Shown: positions 11,142 through 36,400, counted from the stretch's first letter. The stretch is DNA of 64,000 nucleotides from Nitrospiraceae bacterium (GCA_003599505.1 QZKO01000067.1:37114-101113); one strand, 5' to 3'. Program-made: numbers and translations. Notes: generated by a model from the letters alone, not told the origin.

Positions 11142-12143
11142 ATGAAACTCAAAGAACTGGCGGACATCATTGGCGGGGAAATTTCAGGTAATCCTGATGT
11201 TGAAATTACCGGGGCAGCCGGCATAAAAGAAGCGGGAGGGAGTGATATCACTTTCCTTGCGGGCAAAAAATATCTGAACGATCTTTTAAGCTCAAAGGCC
11301 GCGGCGGTAATTATAAAGGACGACATACCCGGTCTGTCAGCTACCCGGCTCCTGTCCGGCAACCCGTATTTTACTTTCGCGAAGGCATTGGAGACGCTCT
11401 ATGGAAAACCTCCTGTCCCCGCGGGCGTCAGCGACGGGGCCTTCGTATGCGAAAATGTGAGCTTCGGAAATAAGGTAACAATATATCCCGGAGCTTATAT
11501 AAGCAGCGGGGCTGTGCTCGGGTCGCGTGTTATGATATATCCCGGGGTGTATATCGGTGAAGGTTCCACAATAGGAGACGACTCCCTGGTGTACCCGAAC
11601 GTGACGATAAGGGAAAAAGTCAGAATAGGCAGAAAAGTAATAATTCACGCGGGCGCCGTCATAGGCGCTGACGGTTTCGGTTATGTGTTCGAAAAAGGAG
11701 CGCATTACAAAATCCCCCAGATAGGCGGAGTGATAATTGAAGATAACGTTGAAATAGGCGCTAATGTTACCATCGACAGGGCGACAACAGGGAACACCGT
11801 CATAGGCGCCGGAACAAAAATAGACAACCTCGTCCAGATAGCCCATAATGCCAGGATAGGCAAAAACTGTATAATAGTTGCACAGGTCGGTATAAGCGGG
11901 AGCGTTGAAATGGGCAATGGGGTTGTGCTTGCAGGTCAGGCCGGCGTAAAAGACCATGTGAAAATCGGCAACGGCGTTATCATCAGCGCTCAGTCCGGGG
12001 TTACGGGAGATGTCCCTGACGGGCAAATACACTCCGGAATGCCGGCCATCCCGCATAAGACCTGGCTCCGGGCGCAGAGCATTTACGCGAAACTGCCGGA
12101 ATATATCAGGCGTCTGCAGGAGCTTGAGAAGAAGGTTAAATAA
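11142..12143 (+). CDS. lpxD: UDP-3-O-acylglucosamine N-acyltransferase
   Basis: Hexapeptide repeats; [17 protein letters not shown]. Confidence 0.97.
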
Positions 12144-12603: not shown

Positions 12604-13375
12604 ACCGAAAATTCATCAGACCGCAATCGTATCACCTGACGCGATAATCTCGGAAGGGGTTGAAATAGGCCCTTACAGCGTTGTCGGCGATAACGTTAAA
12701 ATCGGCAGGAACACAAAACTCATCTCGCATGTGGTAATTGAAGAAAGCGAGATCGGGCAAAACTGCCGCGTATATCCCTTTGCCACAATAGGTCTCCCTC
12801 CGCAGGACATGAAATACAGGGGAGAAAAAACAAAGGTTAAAATCGGAGACAATAACATCCTGAGAGAATATATAAATATTCATCGCGCCTCTGTTGGCGG
12901 AGAGGGCGCGACGGTAATCGGCAACGATAATTTTCTCATGGCTTATGTCCATATCGCGCATGACTGCAGGATCGGCAATAATATTATTATGGCAAACGCT
13001 ACAACCCTGGCAGGGCATGTTGTGGTGGAAGATTTTGTATTCATCGGCGGTCTGGTAGCGGTCCATCAGTTTGCAAGGATCGGGGCCTATTCCATGATAG
13101 GCGGCTTCAGCGCGATCCCGCAGGATATCCCCCCTTACACGACAGCGGCCGGAGAAAGGGCCAGGCTTTACGGTCTGAACACTGTCGGCCTGAAACGACG
13201 CGATTTCACCGATACGACAATCAGCGACCTGAAGAAGGCGTACAGGATACTCTTCCGCAGCAAACTCACTCTCAAGGATGCTATTGATAAGGTAAGGCAT
13301 GATTTAGGCAGGTCCGAGGAAGTCAAAAAACTCGTTGAGTTTATCGAAAAAAATAAAAGGGGTATATGCAGGTAA
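12596..13375 (+). CDS. lpxA: Acyl-ACP--UDP-GlcNAc(3N) acyltransferase
   Basis: PQDMKY, MAYVHIAHDC, GLNTVGL motifs. Confidence 0.97.
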   Translation: MSEPKIHQTAIVSPDAIISEGVEIGPYSVVGDNVKIGRNTKLISHVVIEESEIGQNCRVYPFATIGLPPQDMKYRGEKTKVKIGDNNILREYINIHRASVGGEGATVIGNDNFLMAYVHIAHDCRIGNNIIMANATTLAGHVVVEDFVFIGGLVAVHQFARIGAYSMIGGFSAIPQDIPPYTTAAGERARLYGLNTVGLKRRDFTDTTISDLKKAYRILFRSKLTLKDAIDKVRHDLGRSEEVKKLVEFIEKNKRGICR

Positions 13376-14235
13376 AAACAGGGGCCAGGGGCCAGGGGCA
13401 AGAAGCCAGGGACGGAAAAGGCGTTCCCCCCCTCCTTGCTGTCATTGCCGGAATGGGGAAGCTTCCGGCTGCCCTGGCAACGGAGGCAAAAAAAATGGGT
13501 TACAGGGTCACGGGGATCGCGCTGCAGCCTCCAGCCGACGAATCGCTCAGCGCCTGCGTGGATGACTTCCACAAAATCAGCATCGGCCGTTTCGGCGGCC
13601 TGATAAGCCTCCTCAGGAAATTATCCGTCAGGGACGCGGTAATGGCCGGAAAGGTCCCGAAGGGACTTCTTTACAGGCACAGAATAGTTCCTGACATTAA
13701 GGCCGTCAGGCTGCTTTTTTCTTTAAGGGACCGTTCGGATGATACTATAATGAACGCGGTAGTAGAAGAGCTTGAGAAGCACGGCATCAAGATCCACAAA
13801 ACCACCGAATTCACCGGTAACCTGCTTGCGCCGGAGGGAGTAGTAACGCACAAAAAGCCTTCAAGAGATGAATTGAAAGACATCGAATTCGGCTGGAGGA
13901 TCGCCAAAGAAATGGGGCGCCTGGACATAGGGCAGACCGTCGTTATAAAGGACATGGCTGTAATGGCGGTTGAAGCTATTGAGGGGACGGATGAAGCGAT
14001 TAAAAGAGGCGGCGGCCTTGCCGGCAAAGACGCGGTGGTTGTAAAAGTAAGCAAGCCGGATCAGGACATGCGTTTTGACGTGCCTGTTGTCGGAACCGAT
14101 ACGCTTCACTCCATGAAAGGCGCCGGGGCAAAGGCGCTGGCTGTGGAAGCGGGAAAGTGCATCATTGTCGACAAAGAAATGTTTATTAAAGAAGCGGACA
14201 GAATGGGAATCGTTGTTGTCGGGGTGAAAAAATGA
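13366..14235 (+). CDS. lpxI: UDP-2,3-diacylglucosamine pyrophosphatase LpxI (DUF1009)
   Basis: DIGQTVV, AVEAIEGTD, QDMRFDVP motifs; follows lpxA. Confidence 0.9.
   Translation: MQVKTGARGQGQEARDGKGVPPLLAVIAGMGKLPAALATEAKKMGYRVTGIALQPPADESLSACVDDFHKISIGRFGGLISLLRKLSVRDAVMAGKVPKGLLYRHRIVPDIKAVRLLFSLRDRSDDTIMNAVVEELEKHGIKIHKTTEFTGNLLAPEGVVTHKKPSRDELKDIEFGWRIAKEMGRLDIGQTVVIKDMAVMAVEAIEGTDEAIKRGGGLAGKDAVVVKVSKPDQDMRFDVPVVGTDTLHSMKGAGAKALAVEAGKCIIVDKEMFIKEADRMGIVVVGVKK
13381..13411 (+). repeat. (GGGGCCA)4 heptamer run in the lpxI 5' end
   Basis: GGGGCCA GGGGCCA GGGGCAA GAAGCCA GGG. Confidence 0.8.
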
Positions 14236-14241
14236 AGGGTG

Positions 14242-14322
14242 ATAGGCAATGGGCTATGGGCTATAGGAAGAAACCCTTGCGCGCCTTTTTTTCCTATCGC
14301 CTATAGCCTATTGCCTCTTGCC
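14242..14322 (+). repeat. Inverted pair of heptamer runs after lpxI
   Basis: ATAGGCA ATGGGCT ATGGGCT ATAGG ... CCTATCG CCTATAG CCTATTG CCTCTTG CC. Confidence 0.85.
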
Positions 14323-14386
14323 TTACTGATACGGTGAAATACTATGCTGAAACAGACTTGCTCGAGGAGGAGGGGTTTTTAAAGGT

Positions 14387-15301
14387 ATGATCAACGTTGC
14401 AGTCATAGGCGTAGGTTCGATCGGAAAGCATCACGCGAGGATATTCTCCGGCATGGAAGGCGTAAGGCTCGCCGGCATTGTTGACGCGGATTTTCCCAGG
14501 GCCGTGGAATTCGCGCAAAAATATCAATGCGGGGCGTTTAACGACCATCTGAAAGTTATGGACCTGGTGGACGCGGTAAGCATCGCGGTGCCCACCACCT
14601 TTCACTTCGGGACGGCAATGGACTTTCTCGAACATAATAAACATATACTTGTCGAGAAACCGGTTACCACGACCCTCGAAGAGGCTGAAGCGCTTATTAA
14701 AGAAGCCGGGAAAAGAAACCTCATCCTGCAGGTCGGGCATCTTGAGAGGTTCAACGCGGGGGTTTCCCTCATAAGCTCCATGGTGGACAAACCCCGGTTT
14801 ATAGAATCCCGGCGTCTTTCTCCTTTTTTAGGCAGGGGCACTGATGTGGACGTAACCCTTGACTTAATGATACACGACATAGATATAATACTCAGTTTGG
14901 TTAATTCCGGGATTTCGGACATCCGCGCTACAGGGGCGAGAGTGCTGACTGAAAATATAGACGTGGCCCACGCGTGGATCGAATTTGAAAACGGCTGTAT
15001 CGCGGAGGCTGTGACGAGCAGGCTGGCGGATGAAAAGGTCCGGCAGTTGAAGGTCTTTCAGCACAATTCCTGGCTGAATCTCGATTATCAGAAACAGGAG
15101 TTGACATGTTTTACAAGACGCGACGGCAGCGCGGAAAAAGAGGTACTGAAGCCTGAAGAAAAAGAGCCCTTAAAAGAACAGCTCATTTCGTTTATCGAGT
15201 GTGTCAAAAAAGGGACCCGGCCCCTCGTATCGGGACATGAAGGCAGGGACGCGCTGAAGGTGGCGCTTAAGATATCGGAGCTGGTTAATCAAAGGATATA
15301 A
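14387..15301 (+). CDS. Gfo/Idh/MocA oxidoreductase, GnnA-like
   Basis: GxGxxG, EKP, VGHLERFN, DLMIHDID motifs; inside lpx cluster. Confidence 0.85.
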   Translation: MINVAVIGVGSIGKHHARIFSGMEGVRLAGIVDADFPRAVEFAQKYQCGAFNDHLKVMDLVDAVSIAVPTTFHFGTAMDFLEHNKHILVEKPVTTTLEEAEALIKEAGKRNLILQVGHLERFNAGVSLISSMVDKPRFIESRRLSPFLGRGTDVDVTLDLMIHDIDIILSLVNSGISDIRATGARVLTENIDVAHAWIEFENGCIAEAVTSRLADEKVRQLKVFQHNSWLNLDYQKQELTCFTRRDGSAEKEVLKPEEKEPLKEQLISFIECVKKGTRPLVSGHEGRDALKVALKISELVNQRI

Positions 15302-20621: not shown

Positions 20622-20783
20622 ATGAAAAAGTTTCTGAAAAAATTAGAGACCGTTTATGCTGCGGCAGCGTTCGCGGAGGCCGGAGAATTCGAAACGGCAA
20701 GGGAGATGCTGAAAGAAGAAAAAAGAATAAAAAAGCGGGACATCGCAAAGCCCAGACCGCGGAAACAGTTAAGGGCGGATTGA
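20622..20783 (+). CDS. Small protein with AAAFAEAGE motif
   Basis: ATG 20622 after AGGAGG; motif repeated in the next gene. Confidence 0.75.
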   Translation: MKKFLKKLETVYAAAAFAEAGEFETAREMLKEEKRIKKRDIAKPRPRKQLRAD

Positions 20784-30258: not shown

Positions 30259-31242
30259 GGGTCAGGCTTGCTTTCATGCATTTAATTTCCTTATTACCCT
30301 TTGAACTATTTTCCCTTCTTCCCTGTTCTCAGAGGTCTTGCTCCATCGCGATAATACCGACAAATCCCTTTTTAATTCACTCTGCAATTCCACCAGCCGA
30401 TATCCCGATTCCCTGCATGCCCCGGCAAATATGACCCTTGCCGACTTTACTGCGTTCCCCCTTCCGCGTGACTTTATTTCTTCTTGTGAAACGCCGGTTT
30501 CCTCTAAGACTGCTGCAAATACCTCTTTAAGGGGCGGCTTCCTGACCCGTTTGTCCAGATTATCCACTTCCTCCGCTACTTTCTCTATAAACTTTTCATC
30601 TCCAATAATCTGCTGACCCACGGCCTTGTATACTGACCCGTCACTTTTTATCCCGATTGCAACATCCACAAAATCCCTGTACAGCTTCCGCGCCTCCGAC
30701 GGCCTCTCTGAAAACATTCGCAATACCTTGTCCGTTTCAACAACCCCTTTATTACCGTCCAGGTATTCACGGTGGCTGCTCCATTTGTACTCCTGCGGCT
30801 TCTCTACCAGCTTCGCCCGCACCGGATTTAAGTGTATGTATCGGACCAGGCTTAACAGATATATGTCCCTGTCACAAAGATATGCCTTGTATCTCCCCTG
30901 AAAAAGATGCCCTGTTTTCTTATATCTTTGATTAAAGTACCGCGTATACGTAAAGCTGATTACCTGCATTATCCTCGATATCGGCGTCTTCGGTGTCTCC
31001 ACCAACAAATGCACGTGATTTGTCATCAGCGTATAGGCATATATTATAAACCCATGCCGCCTCCTGTATCTTTCTACAAGTTCAAGATACTTGAATCTGT
31101 CTTTTTTATCTTTAAATATCGCCTGTCGCTGATTGCCACGCACTATTACGTGATAAAATGCTCCGGGATACTCTATTCGCGGTGGTCTCGCCATTGTGAA
31201 CTAATTTTAGCTGTCTCATCTGCACGTTTGCAAGCCTGACCC
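30259..31242 (-). mobile_element. RAYT-like element with terminal inverted repeats
   Basis: GGGTCAGGCTTGC (30259-30271) / GCAAGCCTGACCC (31230-31242), extendable to about 22 bp with RTGCA; encloses only the transposase. Confidence 0.8.
30274..31194 (-). CDS. Y1 HUH transposase (REP-associated/IS200-like) with C-terminal HTH extension
   Basis: YHVIVRGN, MTNHVHLL (HUH), GHLFQGRY, RYIHLNPVRA, YKWSS. Confidence 0.93.
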   Translation of the reverse strand: MARPPRIEYPGAFYHVIVRGNQRQAIFKDKKDRFKYLELVERYRRRHGFIIYAYTLMTNHVHLLVETPKTPISRIMQVISFTYTRYFNQRYKKTGHLFQGRYKAYLCDRDIYLLSLVRYIHLNPVRAKLVEKPQEYKWSSHREYLDGNKGVVETDKVLRMFSERPSEARKLYRDFVDVAIGIKSDGSVYKAVGQQIIGDEKFIEKVAEEVDNLDKRVRKPPLKEVFAAVLEETGVSQEEIKSRGRGNAVKSARVIFAGACRESGYRLVELQSELKRDLSVLSRWSKTSENREEGKIVQRVIRKLNA

Positions 31243-31273
31243 TATACGCTCTATACGCTCTGACCCTATACGC
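31237..31273 (+). repeat. Short tandem repeats overlapping the right TIR
   Basis: TGACCCTATACGC at 31237-31249 and 31261-31273 with CTATACGCTC between. Confidence 0.85.
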
Positions 31274-31276
31274 CTA

Positions 31277-31296
31277 CAAGTGCGTTTTGTTATCTG
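31277..31296 (-). other. Truncated attC left half (R'' box)
   Basis: Minus strand CAGATAAC-AAAAC-GCACTTG just after the last cassette gene; same R'' as the full attC. Confidence 0.5.
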
Positions 31297-31318
31297 ATGT
31301 TTTACATATTCGTTGTCC

Positions 31319-31750
31319 CTATTTTTTCTCTATTCTCCTTTGTTCAATATCTTTGCTGTAATCGTCTATTGAACGAAGAATATCTCCAGTTATATCAGGA
31401 TGTCCAAAAAAGAAAAGCTTGCCTCGCTTGGCTGTATCGACATAGACTTTAGTTCTGTCTTCTGCTATCGGCTCTAACCATATTGAAACTTTAGAACCAG
31501 TCGCCCAGTATGTACCTGGAAATCCTCCGGCTGAAATAAAGCCCTCAATATATGAATCGCCAGCTTTTTCAATATCTACATTATAAGTCACAATTACATC
31601 GAGAACTATTTTACGGGCTTGTTGAATAGGATGTTCTAATACAATACTCTGTGATTCCGATTTTACAAGCGGTAAACATCCAATGTGACACAATAATAAT
31701 GTTGCAACTATAATAAATCTTTTAAATTGTAAGAAATTAATTATTTTCAT
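31319..31750 (-). CDS. Hypothetical lipoprotein (cassette cargo)
   Basis: ATG 31750; hydrophobic leader ending HIGC; AT-rich. Confidence 0.7.
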   Translation of the reverse strand: MKIINFLQFKRFIIVATLLLCHIGCLPLVKSESQSIVLEHPIQQARKIVLDVIVTYNVDIEKAGDSYIEGFISAGGFPGTYWATGSKVSIWLEPIAEDRTKVYVDTAKRGKLFFFGHPDITGDILRSIDDYSKDIEQRRIEKK

Positions 31751-31757
31751 AGCCGTC

Positions 31758-32252
31758 TCATTTTGCCGGCGTTCTGAACCTGAAAGGCGTGTTGCTGACT
31801 GAAGTTCTGCCAGTCGCAATGCCGATTGTATAAATAACCGTCTCGTCAAAGGTACTCCAGTCACTAACAGACGACCCTCTACGTTTCCGGACTGACCAGT
31901 AGTAAAGTGTATCGTATTCGAGCGGCCTCTCAAGCTTATGAAAGTTATCTTTTAAATTCTCAACATAATATACTTCGTTACCCCAGCTAATACTACTCTC
32001 TGGATAAGCAGATGCTGCTTTTACTTCTTCTATATTTGGCTTCCATATAGAAAAATCAAAGGTAGTACTATCTTCCACTGCTGCTTCCCATTTGAAGTCA
32101 GGTTGAAGTGAATCAACATTTACTGGTGTCATTTGAGGTAACAATAAACTATTTTTAGGGGCAATTGGCTTTATTCCGCTATAATGACGCATTGCAGGCA
32201 TACAACTTGCGACAAGAGTAAAGAAGAAACAAAGAATAATCACTTTTTTCAT
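31758..32252 (-). CDS. Hypothetical lipoprotein (cassette cargo)
   Basis: GGGAGG RBS; LVASC lipobox. Confidence 0.75.
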   Translation of the reverse strand: MKKVIILCFFFTLVASCMPAMRHYSGIKPIAPKNSLLLPQMTPVNVDSLQPDFKWEAAVEDSTTFDFSIWKPNIEEVKAASAYPESSISWGNEVYYVENLKDNFHKLERPLEYDTLYYWSVRKRRGSSVSDWSTFDETVIYTIGIATGRTSVSNTPFRFRTPAK

Positions 32253-32302
32253 TTTGTTTCCCTCCCTTCAGTTACCATTAAAAGTTTTGAGAAATCGAAG
32301 CA

Positions 32303-33349
32303 TTATTTGTTTTCTTTAATATTAATTATTTTGTATTCATTATTAGCTCTGACGTTATAGACACATGCAATACCTTCTATTGCCCGCGCCCAACATCTTC
32401 TATTAGTATCTACTTTGAATGATTCAATAACTTCGCTGTTGGTTGCGTTTGATATTTTAATAAGTCGGATATCTTCTGCTTTAAAAATAAAATGTATCTG
32501 CCTTCTCGCCGACAGCTTAACAGGTTGATGATTGTCCAAATAAAAGTAAATGTCATTATTCAAAGAATTATCAACCAATAAAGAAAATTGATCCTTATGC
32601 GGATTAGCATCCGTAATCTCATAAACCAAGTCAAATACAACTTCTAATAATGCAAGAATTCTGTAAAGTATTTTGGCAAGTATTGGAATACGCGGAAGTA
32701 AGCTATATATCCCATTGAGAAAATTGTGATAAAAAATCCCTTTCCCTTCTATGAAGTGCATACCGTTAGACTTTGTTGGTATTTTTTGAATAACCATATC
32801 CGCGACTGGTCCTAATGAGCCTGATGTTGCTTCAACATAGCCTATTGGTATATCTTCCGTCTCTATTAAAGGTGAAGGATTAAAATCATCAAGTGTAAAA
32901 AATGGTGGCCGTAAAAAGAAGAACCGTTTATTCTTTATTTCTAATTGATCAGATATATTGTCAAAATCGATTTGTTCTCCTTGCAATTCTGTTTTTCCCG
33001 CTTTTGCGGCGTACTCAACTGGAGGTGGTGAGCTTTTGGATGAAATTAGAGAAGGGAGGAACTTAATTGTTGAATAACCAACAATTCCAATAATTCCAAA
33101 TACAATCAGCACAAAAACAACCATAGAAGAACTCATTATAATAGTTTCTACTTTTTCCCATCTTTTTCTTTTTCGTTTAAGTTGCTCAGATTGTTCAAAA
33201 GCTTTTATTGTAGTTTCACGTTGATTCTCAATAGTTTCATTTTGACACATATCTTTTAAAGAACATACTAAGCATTTGTCGCTTTTGTATCTTTCATAAA
33301 ACCGACTATAGCAATCTGGCTTTTCCTGAGTTTCTTTCTCATGACTCAT
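32303..33349 (-). CDS. Hypothetical membrane-anchored protein
   Basis: GGAGG RBS immediately after ATTATCTG boundary; N-terminal Cys cluster, one clear TM. Confidence 0.75.
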   Translation of the reverse strand: MSHEKETQEKPDCYSRFYERYKSDKCLVCSLKDMCQNETIENQRETTIKAFEQSEQLKRKRKRWEKVETIIMSSSMVVFVLIVFGIIGIVGYSTIKFLPSLISSKSSPPPVEYAAKAGKTELQGEQIDFDNISDQLEIKNKRFFFLRPPFFTLDDFNPSPLIETEDIPIGYVEATSGSLGPVADMVIQKIPTKSNGMHFIEGKGIFYHNFLNGIYSLLPRIPILAKILYRILALLEVVFDLVYEITDANPHKDQFSLLVDNSLNNDIYFYLDNHQPVKLSARRQIHFIFKAEDIRLIKISNATNSEVIESFKVDTNRRCWARAIEGIACVYNVRANNEYKIINIKENK

Positions 33350-33418
33350 AATGCACTACCTCCATACAGATAATGCGGCGCTGCTCAACTGCTGCATTCT
33401 CCCCGTAGCGAAGCGGAG

Positions 33419-33552
33419 GGGAGAACGATAAGCTCACTGACGAGTGCCAAGAAGCACGTCAAAGAGCATGAAACCGATTTGATAATCATAAGTCATAATC
33501 AGTCTGTAAAAGCGTCCTGTGGCACTCGTTCACGTGCAGCGTCAGGTTATCT
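33419..33552 (-). other. Integron attC recombination site (134 bp)
   Basis: Minus strand R'' AGATAAC, 5 bp, L'' GCTGCAC, inner stem AACGAGTGCCA/TGGCACTCGTC, L' GTGAGC, 5 bp, R' GTTCTCC; starts 5 bp after a stop codon. Confidence 0.8.
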
Positions 33553-33556
33553 GCTG

Positions 33557-34543
33557 TTACTTATATCCTAACTTTACTTCTGTCCCGTCTGGCAAAATTA
33601 CTTTGCCCTTCCCACGCAGATAAACATAGCCGTATGATTCAATAATTCCGAAATTAAGCCTATCGGATTTATCACCTTCGTTAAGAAAATTATAATTTCC
33701 TATTCTTACACTACCGTATATTTCATGAATACTACCATTACCCAAAGGAGCGGTTATATCTGCCTGAGATTCAGGGACTTCTTTTTGGTATATGATGTAT
33801 ATTGGTTTATTAAAAGCATCGAACCTATCAAACATTGCTCCTAATAACCGAGGGTTCATACCAGCCTGCTTTATGAGTTCCTTAACTGATTCACGTGATG
33901 CTAATGTAACATTATCTACAGATTTTGAATTATTTACTCTGGAAACACAGTTAACCAAATTAAAACAGGCAGCCATCATTTCACTTGATAGAGGGATTTC
34001 TTTTATGAAGAATCTGTTTCCTAAACCATTTTTTTTAATATCTTCAATAGTAGTTGGGGGATTTGCCTCGGTCTCTAATTTATTTATAGACTCATTTGGA
34101 GAGATGGCCGGGTTTGTTTGAGCAAGCTTTTCGAATAAAATGACGTCATATTTGAGCATTGCTTTTCTCGTTTTTATATCCACAGACTTTGACTCTTTAT
34201 CAGATGTGATCAATTTTACTTTCCACCCTTCGCCTCTAAAGTCATTTGTGATTGTAGTTGCAATTATACTTGTACCCCGCGATTCTTTTATGGGATCAAC
34301 AAGTAAACCATATTTTTTTGCGTCACTATATTTCACAAAAAAACTATTATCTGGATATTCAACTAATGTTAATTCTATCCCTTTAATAATCCAGGTTCCA
34401 TCATTCGCCACTGTTGAGCTCATAATGCCTTCACTGATCGTACCAATAAATTTATTCTCAGTTTGTTCTGTTTGTTCAGCATAACCAGCAGTACTTAAAA
34501 CGATTATTAAAACAACTATCAAATCTATTGTTTTTTGTATCAT
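33557..34543 (-). CDS. Secreted hypothetical protein (cassette cargo)
   Basis: AAGGAG RBS, signal peptide ending AGYA; ends directly at attC. Confidence 0.75.
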   Translation of the reverse strand: MIQKTIDLIVVLIIVLSTAGYAEQTEQTENKFIGTISEGIMSSTVANDGTWIIKGIELTLVEYPDNSFFVKYSDAKKYGLLVDPIKESRGTSIIATTITNDFRGEGWKVKLITSDKESKSVDIKTRKAMLKYDVILFEKLAQTNPAISPNESINKLETEANPPTTIEDIKKNGLGNRFFIKEIPLSSEMMAACFNLVNCVSRVNNSKSVDNVTLASRESVKELIKQAGMNPRLLGAMFDRFDAFNKPIYIIYQKEVPESQADITAPLGNGSIHEIYGSVRIGNYNFLNEGDKSDRLNFGIIESYGYVYLRGKGKVILPDGTEVKLGYK

Positions 34544-34788
34544 ATTAATATTCTCCTTTTCCTTTTAGAAAACAAATCCCAAATAAAATCATCGTGCTAA
34601 TGATACCAACTACGCTTAGACTCAAAGGCATTGGGCCGCCTCCTTTTGAACATCCTGAAGAATATAGATAATTTTACTATTAACACTGTTCCTATTAAAG
34701 AACAAATACCTCCACAAATTTTTGCAAATAATGACATTCCTATCCCCCCTTTCTTTGTCAGCAATGGGCAACTCGTTTATAAAAGGTT

Positions 34789-35268
34789 TTATTTATTCTC
34801 TTTTCTAAAAATATAGTCATCGGCAATACCTGTCTTCTCATTAACTAAAACCAATAACATATCAGTTTTAGTCTCCATATCTTGTTTACCAATAATTGGA
34901 ACAGTTACCATTTGTCCTTCCATCTTGGTAAAGGTATAACCATAAATCCGATGGTCTTCTGTAATTTTATGCTTTGATGAAAACAAGTCAAAAGAGGGGT
35001 ATACAAACTGAGGGGCCATCATGCCAACCATAGCTCCTTGTTTTGATGATGCTGCTTCCTCGCCTTGTTTTTGTATAACATTAGGAATACCAAACCACTG
35101 GATAATATCTTCTTTCGTGGTTTTGCCGGGTTGAATCATTTTAACCATATCTTCTTTTATTGGTGTTCCCATTTTGAACGACTGCCCCATAAACATACAT
35201 CCTGCTAAAAACAGGATGGTAACGAAAATGCACAAAAGAAATCCGTTAATCTTTGATTCTCTTTTCAT
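34789..35268 (-). CDS. Hypothetical lipoprotein with SmpA/BamE-like motif
   Basis: FLAGC lipobox; IQPGKTTKEDIIQWFGIP. Confidence 0.7.
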   Translation of the reverse strand: MKRESKINGFLLCIFVTILFLAGCMFMGQSFKMGTPIKEDMVKMIQPGKTTKEDIIQWFGIPNVIQKQGEEAASSKQGAMVGMMAPQFVYPSFDLFSSKHKITEDHRIYGYTFTKMEGQMVTVPIIGKQDMETKTDMLLVLVNEKTGIADDYIFRKENK

Positions 35269-35712
35269 AACATATTCTCCTTTCTTGCATACATCAAACC
35301 TAATAAAGTACGTCTTGGCACAGCACTAAAATTTTCTTTGCATGAATTACATATAACATCTTGCATAGCTGTTCCCATAACAGCCCTCCTTTTCATGCCC
35401 TCAGTGAGCAGATAACGAGTCTGTAGAATAAGTCTCCGGCCCGAAAAATCAATTTGATTTTGGGAATCATAAACCCTTGCTTCACCCAAGATCGTTCAAT
35501 ACAGTGCATTCTGAGCATCCGTTTTTTTGCTCAACCTCTCGCAATTTTTCAGAGAGGCCTTTTTCTACAGCTTCAACGATATCTATACTACGCAGTAGGA
35601 ATAGTAAAAAGAACCCGGAATTCGCTGATAGAAAATTATAAACTTCCCTGTGGCCGTTTGTCACGAAAAAAATACAAAAGGAGGTAACCGCTCAGTCACG
35701 TGGGGGACAATA

Positions 35713-35801
35713 CCCCCCCCTTTTGGCAAAGGGGGGCGAGGAGGGATTTTTTCAATACATTCTATAAAATCTCCCCTAACCCCTCTTTTTCAAAGAGGGG
35801 G
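35713..35801. repeat. Inverted dyad of CCCCCCTTT-N-AAAGGGGGG hairpins (REP/MITE-like)
   Basis: CCCCCCCCTTTTGGCAAAGGGGGG..GGGATTT / AAATCTCCCCTAACCCCTCTTTTTCAAAGAGGGGG. Confidence 0.75.
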
Positions 35802-35875
35802 ACCTTCACACACACCCTCCACTGAAGGGTTACAGTTGCGCGGGCGCGCAATTAGACGGATCTTCTACGGCGGCT

Positions 35876-36400
35876 TTATTCTTCAAGCTGGACCCTTATA
35901 TACGCCTTCTTTCTCAGCTCCCCGATATGCTCAACGATCTTCTCTTTTAACTCCGTGTCAATAAGGCGGTCTTCTATTTTGTCTTTGACTTCATAGAATT
36001 CCTCCTCACCGAACTCTTGCCTGTTCCGGGTGTAATATGATTCGATCTCTTCAATCGGTATATGGATAAACGCCCTTATGCTCCTCTCGATGTATTCTTT
36101 CACAAGCGCGGCGTCATTTCTCCTTTCCGCGATGTCCCGTGTTCCTCCGGGCATCAGTCTTTTTGCCTGGTCCAGAAGCAGCGCCCTGTCTATCATGCCG
36201 TTCAGGACTTTTTCCCCGGTTACTCCGGGATCGGACTTTCTCGCGGCCTGAAGCTCCTCATCGTATTCGCTCAGCAGGATCAGCCGGTTATTCACTATCG
36301 CTACTATCCGGTCCAGGACCTCAGCGTAGCTATTAGCGGTCAGCAACCAACTGACAGCAATCAGCAACAGAATCAAAATTAATATTTTCAGGTTCTTCAT
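35876..36400 (-). CDS. SurA N-terminal-domain protein
   Basis: EVLDRIVAIVNNRLILLSE; C-terminal LRKKAYI; signal peptide overlaps heptamer run at 36328-36367. Confidence 0.8.
   Translation of the reverse strand: MKNLKILILILLLIAVSWLLTANSYAEVLDRIVAIVNNRLILLSEYDEELQAARKSDPGVTGEKVLNGMIDRALLLDQAKRLMPGGTRDIAERRNDAALVKEYIERSIRAFIHIPIEEIESYYTRNRQEFGEEEFYEVKDKIEDRLIDTELKEKIVEHIGELRKKAYIRVQLEE

Follow-up and report, generated by a model that had tools for sequence, protein, structure and literature searches.

A probable remnant of an integron cassette array, with one intact attC site, in a groundwater Nitrospirota genome

Sedentary chromosomal integrons, such as the VCR (Vibrio cholerae repeat) arrays of Vibrio, carry homogeneous, long attC recombination sites of ~120-130 nt. 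An attC site is typically recognized by an RYYYAAC-like R'' box and a GTTRRRY-like R' box that pair with each other, and by an imperfect palindrome with extrahelical bases, an L''/L' box, a spacer that stays unpaired and a terminal structure that varies, whose structure is conserved more than its sequence. Clusters of attC sites and single attC sites lacking an integron integrase are known as CALINs and SALINs, respectively (Cury et al. 2016; IntegronFinder 2.0, PMC9024848; Loot et al., bioRxiv 10.1101/2022.09.11.507474). Nitrospirota are nearly absent from RefSeq-based integron surveys, to which they contribute two CALINs only and no complete integron (PMC9024848). Here, we analyzed a 64,000-nt stretch of DNA (hereafter the window; Nitrospiraceae bacterium GCA_003599505.1, QZKO01000067.1:37114-101113; positions are counted from its first letter) from a groundwater Thermodesulfovibrionia-type Nitrospirota metagenome-assembled genome (MAG; Joint Genome Institute metagenome 3300007352, 101-kb contig Ga0104756_1000091). 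An earlier note, made from the sequence alone, had interpreted an AT-rich block at 31289-35416 as an integrase-less cassette array. Our results indicate that this block is very probably a fragment of an integron cassette array in decay, situated outside any integron.

The block contains a single intact attC site of 133 nt on the minus strand (33420..33552). The site was identified with R1, a family-specific covariance model that was built from 42 copies in other genomes with the window copy excluded and is not IntegronFinder's general attC model. R1 matched at full model length at 33552-33420 (-) with 112.9 bits (E value 1.3e-34), and a scan of the 64-kb window with R1 gave no further match above 15 bits. 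The R'' box is AGATAAC (33552-33546) and the R' box is GTTCTCC (33426-33420), with the crossover between G33426 and T33425. In the consensus fold of the 42 copies (RNAalifold), the 4-bp R''/R' stem (TAAC/GTTA) is set apart from a 3-bp L box by five unpaired spacer nucleotides, and a 5-nt bulge then separates the L box from a 12-bp stem. The TAAC/GTTA pairing is present in 42/42 copies, and compensatory changes occur at eight pairs of the fold. AGATAAC deviates from the strict RYYY consensus, yet it is a frequent variant among the integrase-linked arrays of the family. By box pairing, by its imperfect palindrome and by the family covariance model, the window site has the properties of an attC. 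A longer, 187-nt fold pairing 33553 with 33367 as one attC was rejected, since homologues place R' at 33426-33420 and the remaining DNA is a separate insert (module B, see below).

Members of the same attC family are found in many other genomes, and some of them are linked to integron integrases. The family was reached through an Omnitrophota array (L007, the same as L023; L numbers denote retrieved loci), in which CopG, NotI plus methylase, and toxin-antitoxin genes are each followed by a palindromic site of the form nnnTAAC...GTTnnnn; window 33552-33420 can be aligned with two of these sites. From the part of the attC that they have in common, a 21-base pattern was derived, which identified 63 loci among one-genome-per-species contigs, mainly from groundwater or subsurface Nitrospirota/Thermodesulfovibrionia MAGs and also from Planctomycetota (including Brocadia), Omnitrophota and Deltaproteobacteria. 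These yielded 47 distinct full copies of 131-136 nt (family length ~132 nt). Up to eight co-oriented copies form arrays (L070, L046, L029, L024, L057 and L030), with a median spacing of 848 nt (10-90% range, 720-1781 nt). At six loci, a divergently oriented recombinase lies beside the first cassette and scores 380-475 bits on the NCBIfam model TIGR02249, "integron integrase" (cut-off 265), and integrase fragments were detected by tblastn in three further family loci. An attI region with direct repeats, ending in ...TCTAATATCT G|TT, is common to four integrons. The attC closest by eye to that of the window belongs to L042, an integron in MAG SURF_45 (a sister sample from the same site); there, the integrase gene intI lies next to rpoA and to other core genes, for a DEAD-box helicase and type II secretion pseudopilins.

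Partial and recombinant-looking sites were also seen in the family. Numerous copies keep their 5' half alone (model positions ~2-60 or 2-105), with unrelated sequence after it (L009, L025, L031, L033, L050, L053, L054 and L063). In two contigs of one MAG (L061 53-184 and L062 7487-7618), the attC 5' halves are identical and the 3' halves differ; the arms of the L061 site are unpaired (ATCGAA vs TACTCG), as in a recombinant attC or an assembly chimera at the contig end.

Crossover by the integron integrase (IntI) takes place between G and TT, and a cassette is therefore expected to begin with bases that complement the R'' box of its own attC. This boundary rule (hereafter the R'' rule) was assessed in 46 cassettes, each lying between two family attC sites. 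The TTNNNN start was complementary to the cassette's own R'' at all four variable bases in 43 of the 46, and the mean match was 3.83 of 4 bases, compared with 2.00 +/- 0.13 when partners were shuffled. Both window cassettes match at 4/4 bases (TTATCT at 35415 with AGATAA at 33552; TTATCT at 33373 with AGATAA at 31295). As judged from sequence, these comparisons show the window site to be a true attC of the family used by the integron integrases of groundwater Nitrospirota and neighboring phyla.

Cassette 1 comprises 1990 nt on the minus strand (33426..35415), beginning with TTATCTG after G35416 and ending with its own attC. Cassette 2, also on the minus strand, comprises at least 2085 nt (31289..33373), beginning with TTATCTG after A33374 and ending with R'' AGATAAC (31295-31289). 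The DNA between 31.3 and 35.4 kb has a G+C content of 33-39%, compared with ~50% in the surroundings, and every sizeable open reading frame (ORF) of the block is on the minus strand. The 8-mer GTTATCTG occurs exactly three times in the 64 kb, at 31289-31296 (+), 33546-33553 (+) and 35409-35416 (-), with a 7/8 copy, CAGATAAT, at 33367-33374, and all four copies are placed at composition boundaries of low-GC stretches. Three or more copies were obtained in 20/100 shuffles, and thus the number of copies by itself is not significant. An Rfam search gave no relevant match.

Both cassettes carry several genes, all read from the minus strand. Cassette 1 has two large and about three small ORFs, which encode a 37-aa CxxC peptide (35265-35378), a predicted 159-aa lipoprotein with a weak BamE-like match (34789-35268), small membrane peptides (34545-34764) and a predicted 328-aa secreted protein (33557-34543). 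The three ORFs of cassette 2 encode a predicted 348-aa single-pass membrane protein with a Cys-rich N-terminus (32303-33349) and two predicted lipoproteins of 164 aa (31758-32252) and 143 aa (31319-31750). Each ORF has a predicted ribosome-binding site of its own. The gaps between ORFs within each unit are 7-53 nt, too short for an attC, so there is no hidden attC and the cassettes are truly multi-gene. At ~2.0-2.1 kb they exceed the 90th percentile of family attC spacing (1781 nt); two-gene toxin-antitoxin and restriction-modification cassettes are frequent in arrays of the same family. The earlier note's description is borne out by these results, namely all of its boundary coordinates, the minus-strand orientation of the genes, a full attC at 33552-33419, two ~2-kb units with TTATCTG starts and complementary ends, and more than one gene per cassette; the covariance-model scoring of the attC that it had proposed gives, with the family model, a significant score.

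The cassette proteins have few relatives. None scored above threshold against Pfam, NCBIfam or PADLOC. The 3' third of cassette 1, together with its attC, has 69% DNA identity to a cassette of the L007/L023 array from Omnitrophota, and the 328-aa protein has one close relative, encoded on the same contig (59% identity over the C-terminal 189 residues); an AlphaFold single-sequence model of this protein has a predicted local distance difference test score of 38, too low for use. For the 348-aa protein, a word-index search gave no relative, and 16 remote, unannotated relatives were present among 1.84 billion representatives. By their N-termini, the five ORFs of at least 143 aa are predicted to encode three lipoproteins, one secreted protein and one single-pass membrane protein. 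As every one of the five is predicted to be exported, anchored by a lipid or inserted in a membrane, the cell envelope is most likely where the cargo acts or what it alters. Five envelope proteins nearly without relatives are typical of the unexplored cassette gene pool.

A complete integron is expected to have intI, attI and a cassette promoter (Pc) beside its cassettes; neither intI nor attI was found beside the cassettes in the window. A tblastn search of the 64 kb with two integron integrases of this attC family returned nothing with E < 0.4, and a scan of the window for tyrosine-recombinase motifs revealed no integrase, in agreement with the earlier statement that the window holds no intI. 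At the downstream end of cassette 2, only a stub of a second attC is left (31282..31296, minus strand; ~15 nt), consisting of CAGATAAC and the spacer AAAACGC, with the remainder of the site missing; the same spacer is found in the L070 copy (ACCCAAC AAAACGC TGCACGTG). By IntegronFinder default, a CALIN has at least two attC sites (PMC9024848), and this locus has one full attC and the ~15-nt stub. A SALIN has a single attC with coding sequences and no other att site or intI; this description fits, with the addition of an extra cassette with a truncated attC. Since only one attC is intact, the IntegronFinder default would call the locus a SALIN, not a CALIN. The earlier reading as a CALIN-like array is supported, with respect to the integrase-less cassette cluster, the true attC and the boundary rule; formally, the locus is a SALIN or borderline CALIN.

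The earlier description can be refined in one respect: two segments, 35576/35577-35417 (~160 nt) and 33425-33375 (51-52 nt), are separate small inserts that do not belong to the two cassettes. The first, module A (35417..35577, minus strand), is an ORF-less segment of ~160 nt (GAAGCTGTAGAAAAAG...CTTATTCTACAGACTC) with GTT on both sides. It is 81% identical over 167 nt to L048 3875-3709, a copy that is GTT-flanked too, preceded by a family attC (…CTCTAC GTT) and followed by the next cassette (GTTAGGT). When module A and one GTT are removed, a normal junction results at both loci (GTTATCT in the window, GTTAGGT in L048). The ends of module A are inverted and paired, with a modest fold (z score -2.15 in the window and -2.46 in L048). 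It gave no attC match with R1 and does not follow the R'' rule; an ORF-less cassette was rejected because of the failed rule and because a GTT-flanked insert suits better. Most simply, module A would be a small non-autonomous insert, resembling a miniature inverted-repeat transposable element, in the GTT crossover core.

The second insert, module B (33375..33425, minus strand), is a GC-rich segment of 51-52 nt with a hairpin, TTCTCCCC...GGGGAGAA, followed by GCAGCAGTTGAGCAGCGCCGCA, and separates the G from the TT in the R' core of the attC. Its deletion leaves an R' of GTTATCT, the exact partner of R'' AGATAAC. Its ends match both ends of a 125-nt double-hairpin element (L017 120-243; fold z score -4.3), which is bounded by ATT and GTT, as is module B, and its loop, TCCGCTTCGCTACG, is found too in a short attC of L040. 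Module B looks like a collapsed copy of a small hairpin element, or an empty mini-cassette.

Upstream of module A, the array begins with the remains of an insertion sequence (IS). This array head (35578..35696, minus strand) is a ~119-nt remnant of the transposase-proximal end of an IS110/IS1111-family element, without a transposase gene, and ends in ...TAGTATAGATATC, followed by the first GTT. It is 80% identical to L057 125-243, and three further copies (L077, L078 and L079) were obtained from metagenome contigs. When aligned, all five loci share one invariant sequence as far as TAGTATAGATATCGTT, beyond which they continue into unlike cassette starts (TTGAAG, TTATCT, TTATCA, TTATCC and TTAGAC); the cassette that follows the head sequence in L078 obeys the R'' rule. 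L079 is an intact copy, in which the head corresponds to the ~113 nt upstream of a 455-aa IS110-family transposase (PF01548 and PF02371). Because this intact copy carries the transposase, the window head can be assigned as a stump of an IS110/IS1111-family element adjoining cassette starts, and its candidacy as an attI-like site was rejected. The DEDD transposase of the element is absent from the window: the one tblastn match of the L079 transposase, 22 aa with an E value of 0.48 at 20681-20746, is not significant and is far from the array. A transposase-less version of the head is common to the window and the start of contig L057, where a long array follows it immediately. Inside the stump (35664-35635) lies GTGACA-18-TATAAT, which is the best match to a sigma-70-like promoter in the region and is directed toward the cassettes.

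Other IS elements and repeats are associated with family loci. The intact L079 element has GTTAGAC on both flanks (221-227 and 1926-1932), a hint of a 7-bp duplication of the target, or of a shared core, at an attC R' site. A second IS110-family type, with the end GGAGGCCTTAATTAGTATC, is found in the R'' box of family attC sites at four loci (L057 6780-6810, L009, L019 and L034), which is classic IS1111-attC behavior. GC-rich hairpin repeats of the CCCCCCTTTGCCAAAAGGGGGG type, found at 35700-35830 in the window, after the surA-like gene and before the array head, recur in at least nine fetched loci, including beside intI in L066.

At the opposite end, where the array is cut, a flank that does not belong to the cassettes (30259..31281, minus strand) holds GCGTATAGGGTCAG repetitive extragenic palindrome (REP)-like repeats and a gene for a REP-associated tyrosine transposase (RAYT). 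The REP-like repeats lie past the attC stub, where we found neither a fold (z score -0.10) nor an R1 match. The RAYT gene (30274-31194) encodes 306 aa with Y1_Tnp and DnaA-C-like helix-turn-helix domains, and scores 81 bits on NCBIfam NF047646 (cut-off 80), with a Pfam Y1_Tnp match. Around it is a perfect 13-bp inverted repeat, GGGTCAGGCTTGC (30259-30271 / 31230-31242), whose left copy is contained in the initial codons of an annotated fatty-acid hydroxylase ORF; extra GCGTATAGGGTCAG repeats are present on the right side. Related RAYT units with GGGTCA-type inverted repeats lie within the arrays of L026, L040 and L068. Targeting of attC by the RAYT is unsupported, because the L040 unit lies within a cassette and the attC there is untouched.

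The array lies in the slot that follows a surA-like gene (35876-36400, minus-strand reading, upstream of the array head) and extends to the hydroxylase gene. The closest BamA relatives found by protein search and contig look-ups are 66-73% identical, and BamA-seeded scans of genome and metagenome contigs revealed no close relatives. The content of the segment between the surA-like and hydroxylase genes differs among six relatives (L002, L003, L005, L074, L075 and L076), and the block is not syntenic in relatives, contrary to one part of what the earlier note had set as a refutation of its reading. In L075 and L076 the slot holds a Ser/Thr kinase gene, and in L003 and L005 other genes. In L002, the closest relative, it holds a 35%-GC SIR2-like gene bounded by G|TTAGGC...GCCTAAC, for which the R'' rule holds at 4/4 bases (13345-14420; bounds TGTTAGGCAT / ATGCCTAACA). 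After the R'' of L002, no attC hairpin and no R1 match were detected. In L074 (BamA 71% identical), an integron promoter/attI-side region in cassette orientation (11849-12013) lies ~450 nt after the surA-like gene, with 71-73% identity to the Pc/attI side of three complete integrons (E values 1e-15 to 1e-17). There is no intI within the 12 kb of L074 sequence, and the contig ends inside the attI region. Together, these loci show that the slot has held integron-derived DNA in at least three lineages (the window, L002 and L074).

In L002 there is, in addition, a 21-nt inverted repeat (19/21) that pairs the ORF start (13424-13444) with 14400-14420, 25 nt past R''. Alignments of the non-coding flanks of the window with those of L002, and of the L002 junction with attI regions, were no better than shuffles.

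The cassettes might instead have reached their place without a larger array or an integron having decayed. IntI acting in trans could have inserted them straight into a chromosomal site (attC x attG, the SALIN route of Loot et al.), an explanation we consider improbable. Isolated cassettes are common and insertion by IntI at GWT genomic sites is documented (bioRxiv 10.1101/2022.09.11.507474); many family loci have a single attC within 8 kb, some of them on contigs of 260-270 kb, and the L002 slot holds a different single cassette. However, what lies upstream of the first window junction is not host DNA, and is instead the IS110-family end that recurs at cassette starts, in the transposase-less form that also heads the long array at the start of contig L057. 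In addition, this slot contains an attI-side platform in L074, a relative, and inserts in both crossover cores together with a truncated terminal attC fit the erosion of an older array better. Erosion is thus favored over a fresh attG insertion by the IS stump, by the truncated attC and by the integron-derived DNA that this slot has held in three or more lineages. It is far less probable still that the block was moved as a composite unit by the neighboring RAYT or IS110-family element, with the attC a mere passenger. A RAYT gene with 13-bp inverted repeats does adjoin the truncated end, an IS110-family end lies on the opposite side, and RAYT units recur in three other arrays. Yet the two flanking elements are mutually unrelated and here incomplete or single-ended, the RAYT unit of L040 sits inside a cassette without touching attC, and the GTTATCT / AGATAAC ends of the block follow the integron rule of 43/46 cassettes. 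An ordinary horizontally acquired islet with chance inverted repeats would agree with the non-significant 8-mer count and with the fact that chance alone produces perfect inverted repeats of 10 bp in 1.5 kb of AT-rich sequence, but it is refuted by the attC model (E 1e-34), by homology to the attC sites of integrase-linked arrays and by the boundary rule, which leave it a practically negligible chance.

Several points weigh against the reading of the block as a decaying array fragment. Only one attC is intact, so that the word "array" rests on boundary logic and a 15-nt stub. The flanks of the window and L002 cannot be aligned, which means that the empty site is not reconstructable, and the treatment of modules A and B as inserts is a matter of parsimony, not proof. 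The array head has no significant similarity to the attI regions of complete integrons (L042, L047, L064 and L066, by shuffle comparison), which leaves L074 as the sole basis for tracing the array to an integron at this position. Promoter use and co-transcription rest on consensus matches only.

On the reading that we favor, each cassette was once able to circularize, bounded by G|TTATCT on the 5' side and, on the 3' side, by an attC whose R'' is AGATAAC. Mobile DNA has remodeled the array, leaving the IS110/IS1111 stump upstream, hairpin elements in both GTT cores and the REP/RAYT unit downstream. Movement would require IntI in trans, which would fold the attC bottom strand and cut between G and TT. 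Because one site is intact, at most cassette 1 may still be able to recombine, and cassette 2 would be fixed in place. Both cassettes are probably transcribed together from the promoter-like site in the IS stump. A broader scenario is conceivable, although we think it rather unlikely: the GTT core of attC R' would be a dedicated landing site for an IS110/IS1111 element, directed by a guide RNA, and for its non-autonomous derivatives, modules A and B; the stump, with its near-consensus outward promoter, would be a Pc-like head that keeps integrase-less satellite arrays expressed; and the bamA-surA slot would be a recurrent home of arrays in this clade (window, L002 and L074).

The locus records the erosion of an array base by base, with the integrase and attI absent, one attC cut, IS and REP sequences at the ends and inserts in the cores. 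It also documents a conserved attC family of ~132 nt, along with the integrases that accompany it, both in Thermodesulfovibrionia-type Nitrospirota and in MAGs of the Omnitrophota, Planctomycetota and Deltaproteobacteria that co-occur with them. One attC family across several phyla points to cassette exchange between phyla in aquifers, and the locus offers an entry point to this family and to attC-targeting IS elements.

Among described systems, the closest are the mobile elements that target attC and the integron-derived cassette clusters themselves. IS1111 members that target one end of attC are known, such as ISKpn4 and ISPst6 (Tetu & Holmes 2008; Post & Hall 2009; Siddiquee et al. 2024, PMC11187229). 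As in that group, the end of a DEDD-transposase element adjoins cassette recombination sites in fixed orientation at five independent loci; unlike in that group, the head element of the window adjoins the GTT of R' and the cassette start, not the R'' side, and ~119 nt of it survive. Group IIC-attC introns have outward promoters that express downstream cassettes (PMC3001079). The IS stump resembles them as an attC-targeting mobile element able to give a promoter to Pc-less cassettes, although the candidate promoter in the window sits in an IS stump and not in an intron. With sedentary chromosomal integrons, the family shares a highly conserved attC of ~132 nt, same-strand arrays rich in toxin-antitoxin and restriction-modification cassettes, a divergently oriented intI and an attI with direct repeats. 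In contrast to them, the family attC spans several phyla of groundwater MAGs and not one genus, and the window holds a fragment without a platform. CALINs and SALINs resemble the locus in having attC cassettes with no intI within tens of kb, in a small chromosomal locus with transposable-element remains at its flanks, an arrangement that has been proposed for arrays that decayed or were rearranged. With one attC intact and the second a 15-nt stub, the window locus falls between these two definitions. It is a clear example of an already known type of element, and it leaves the general view of integrons unchanged.

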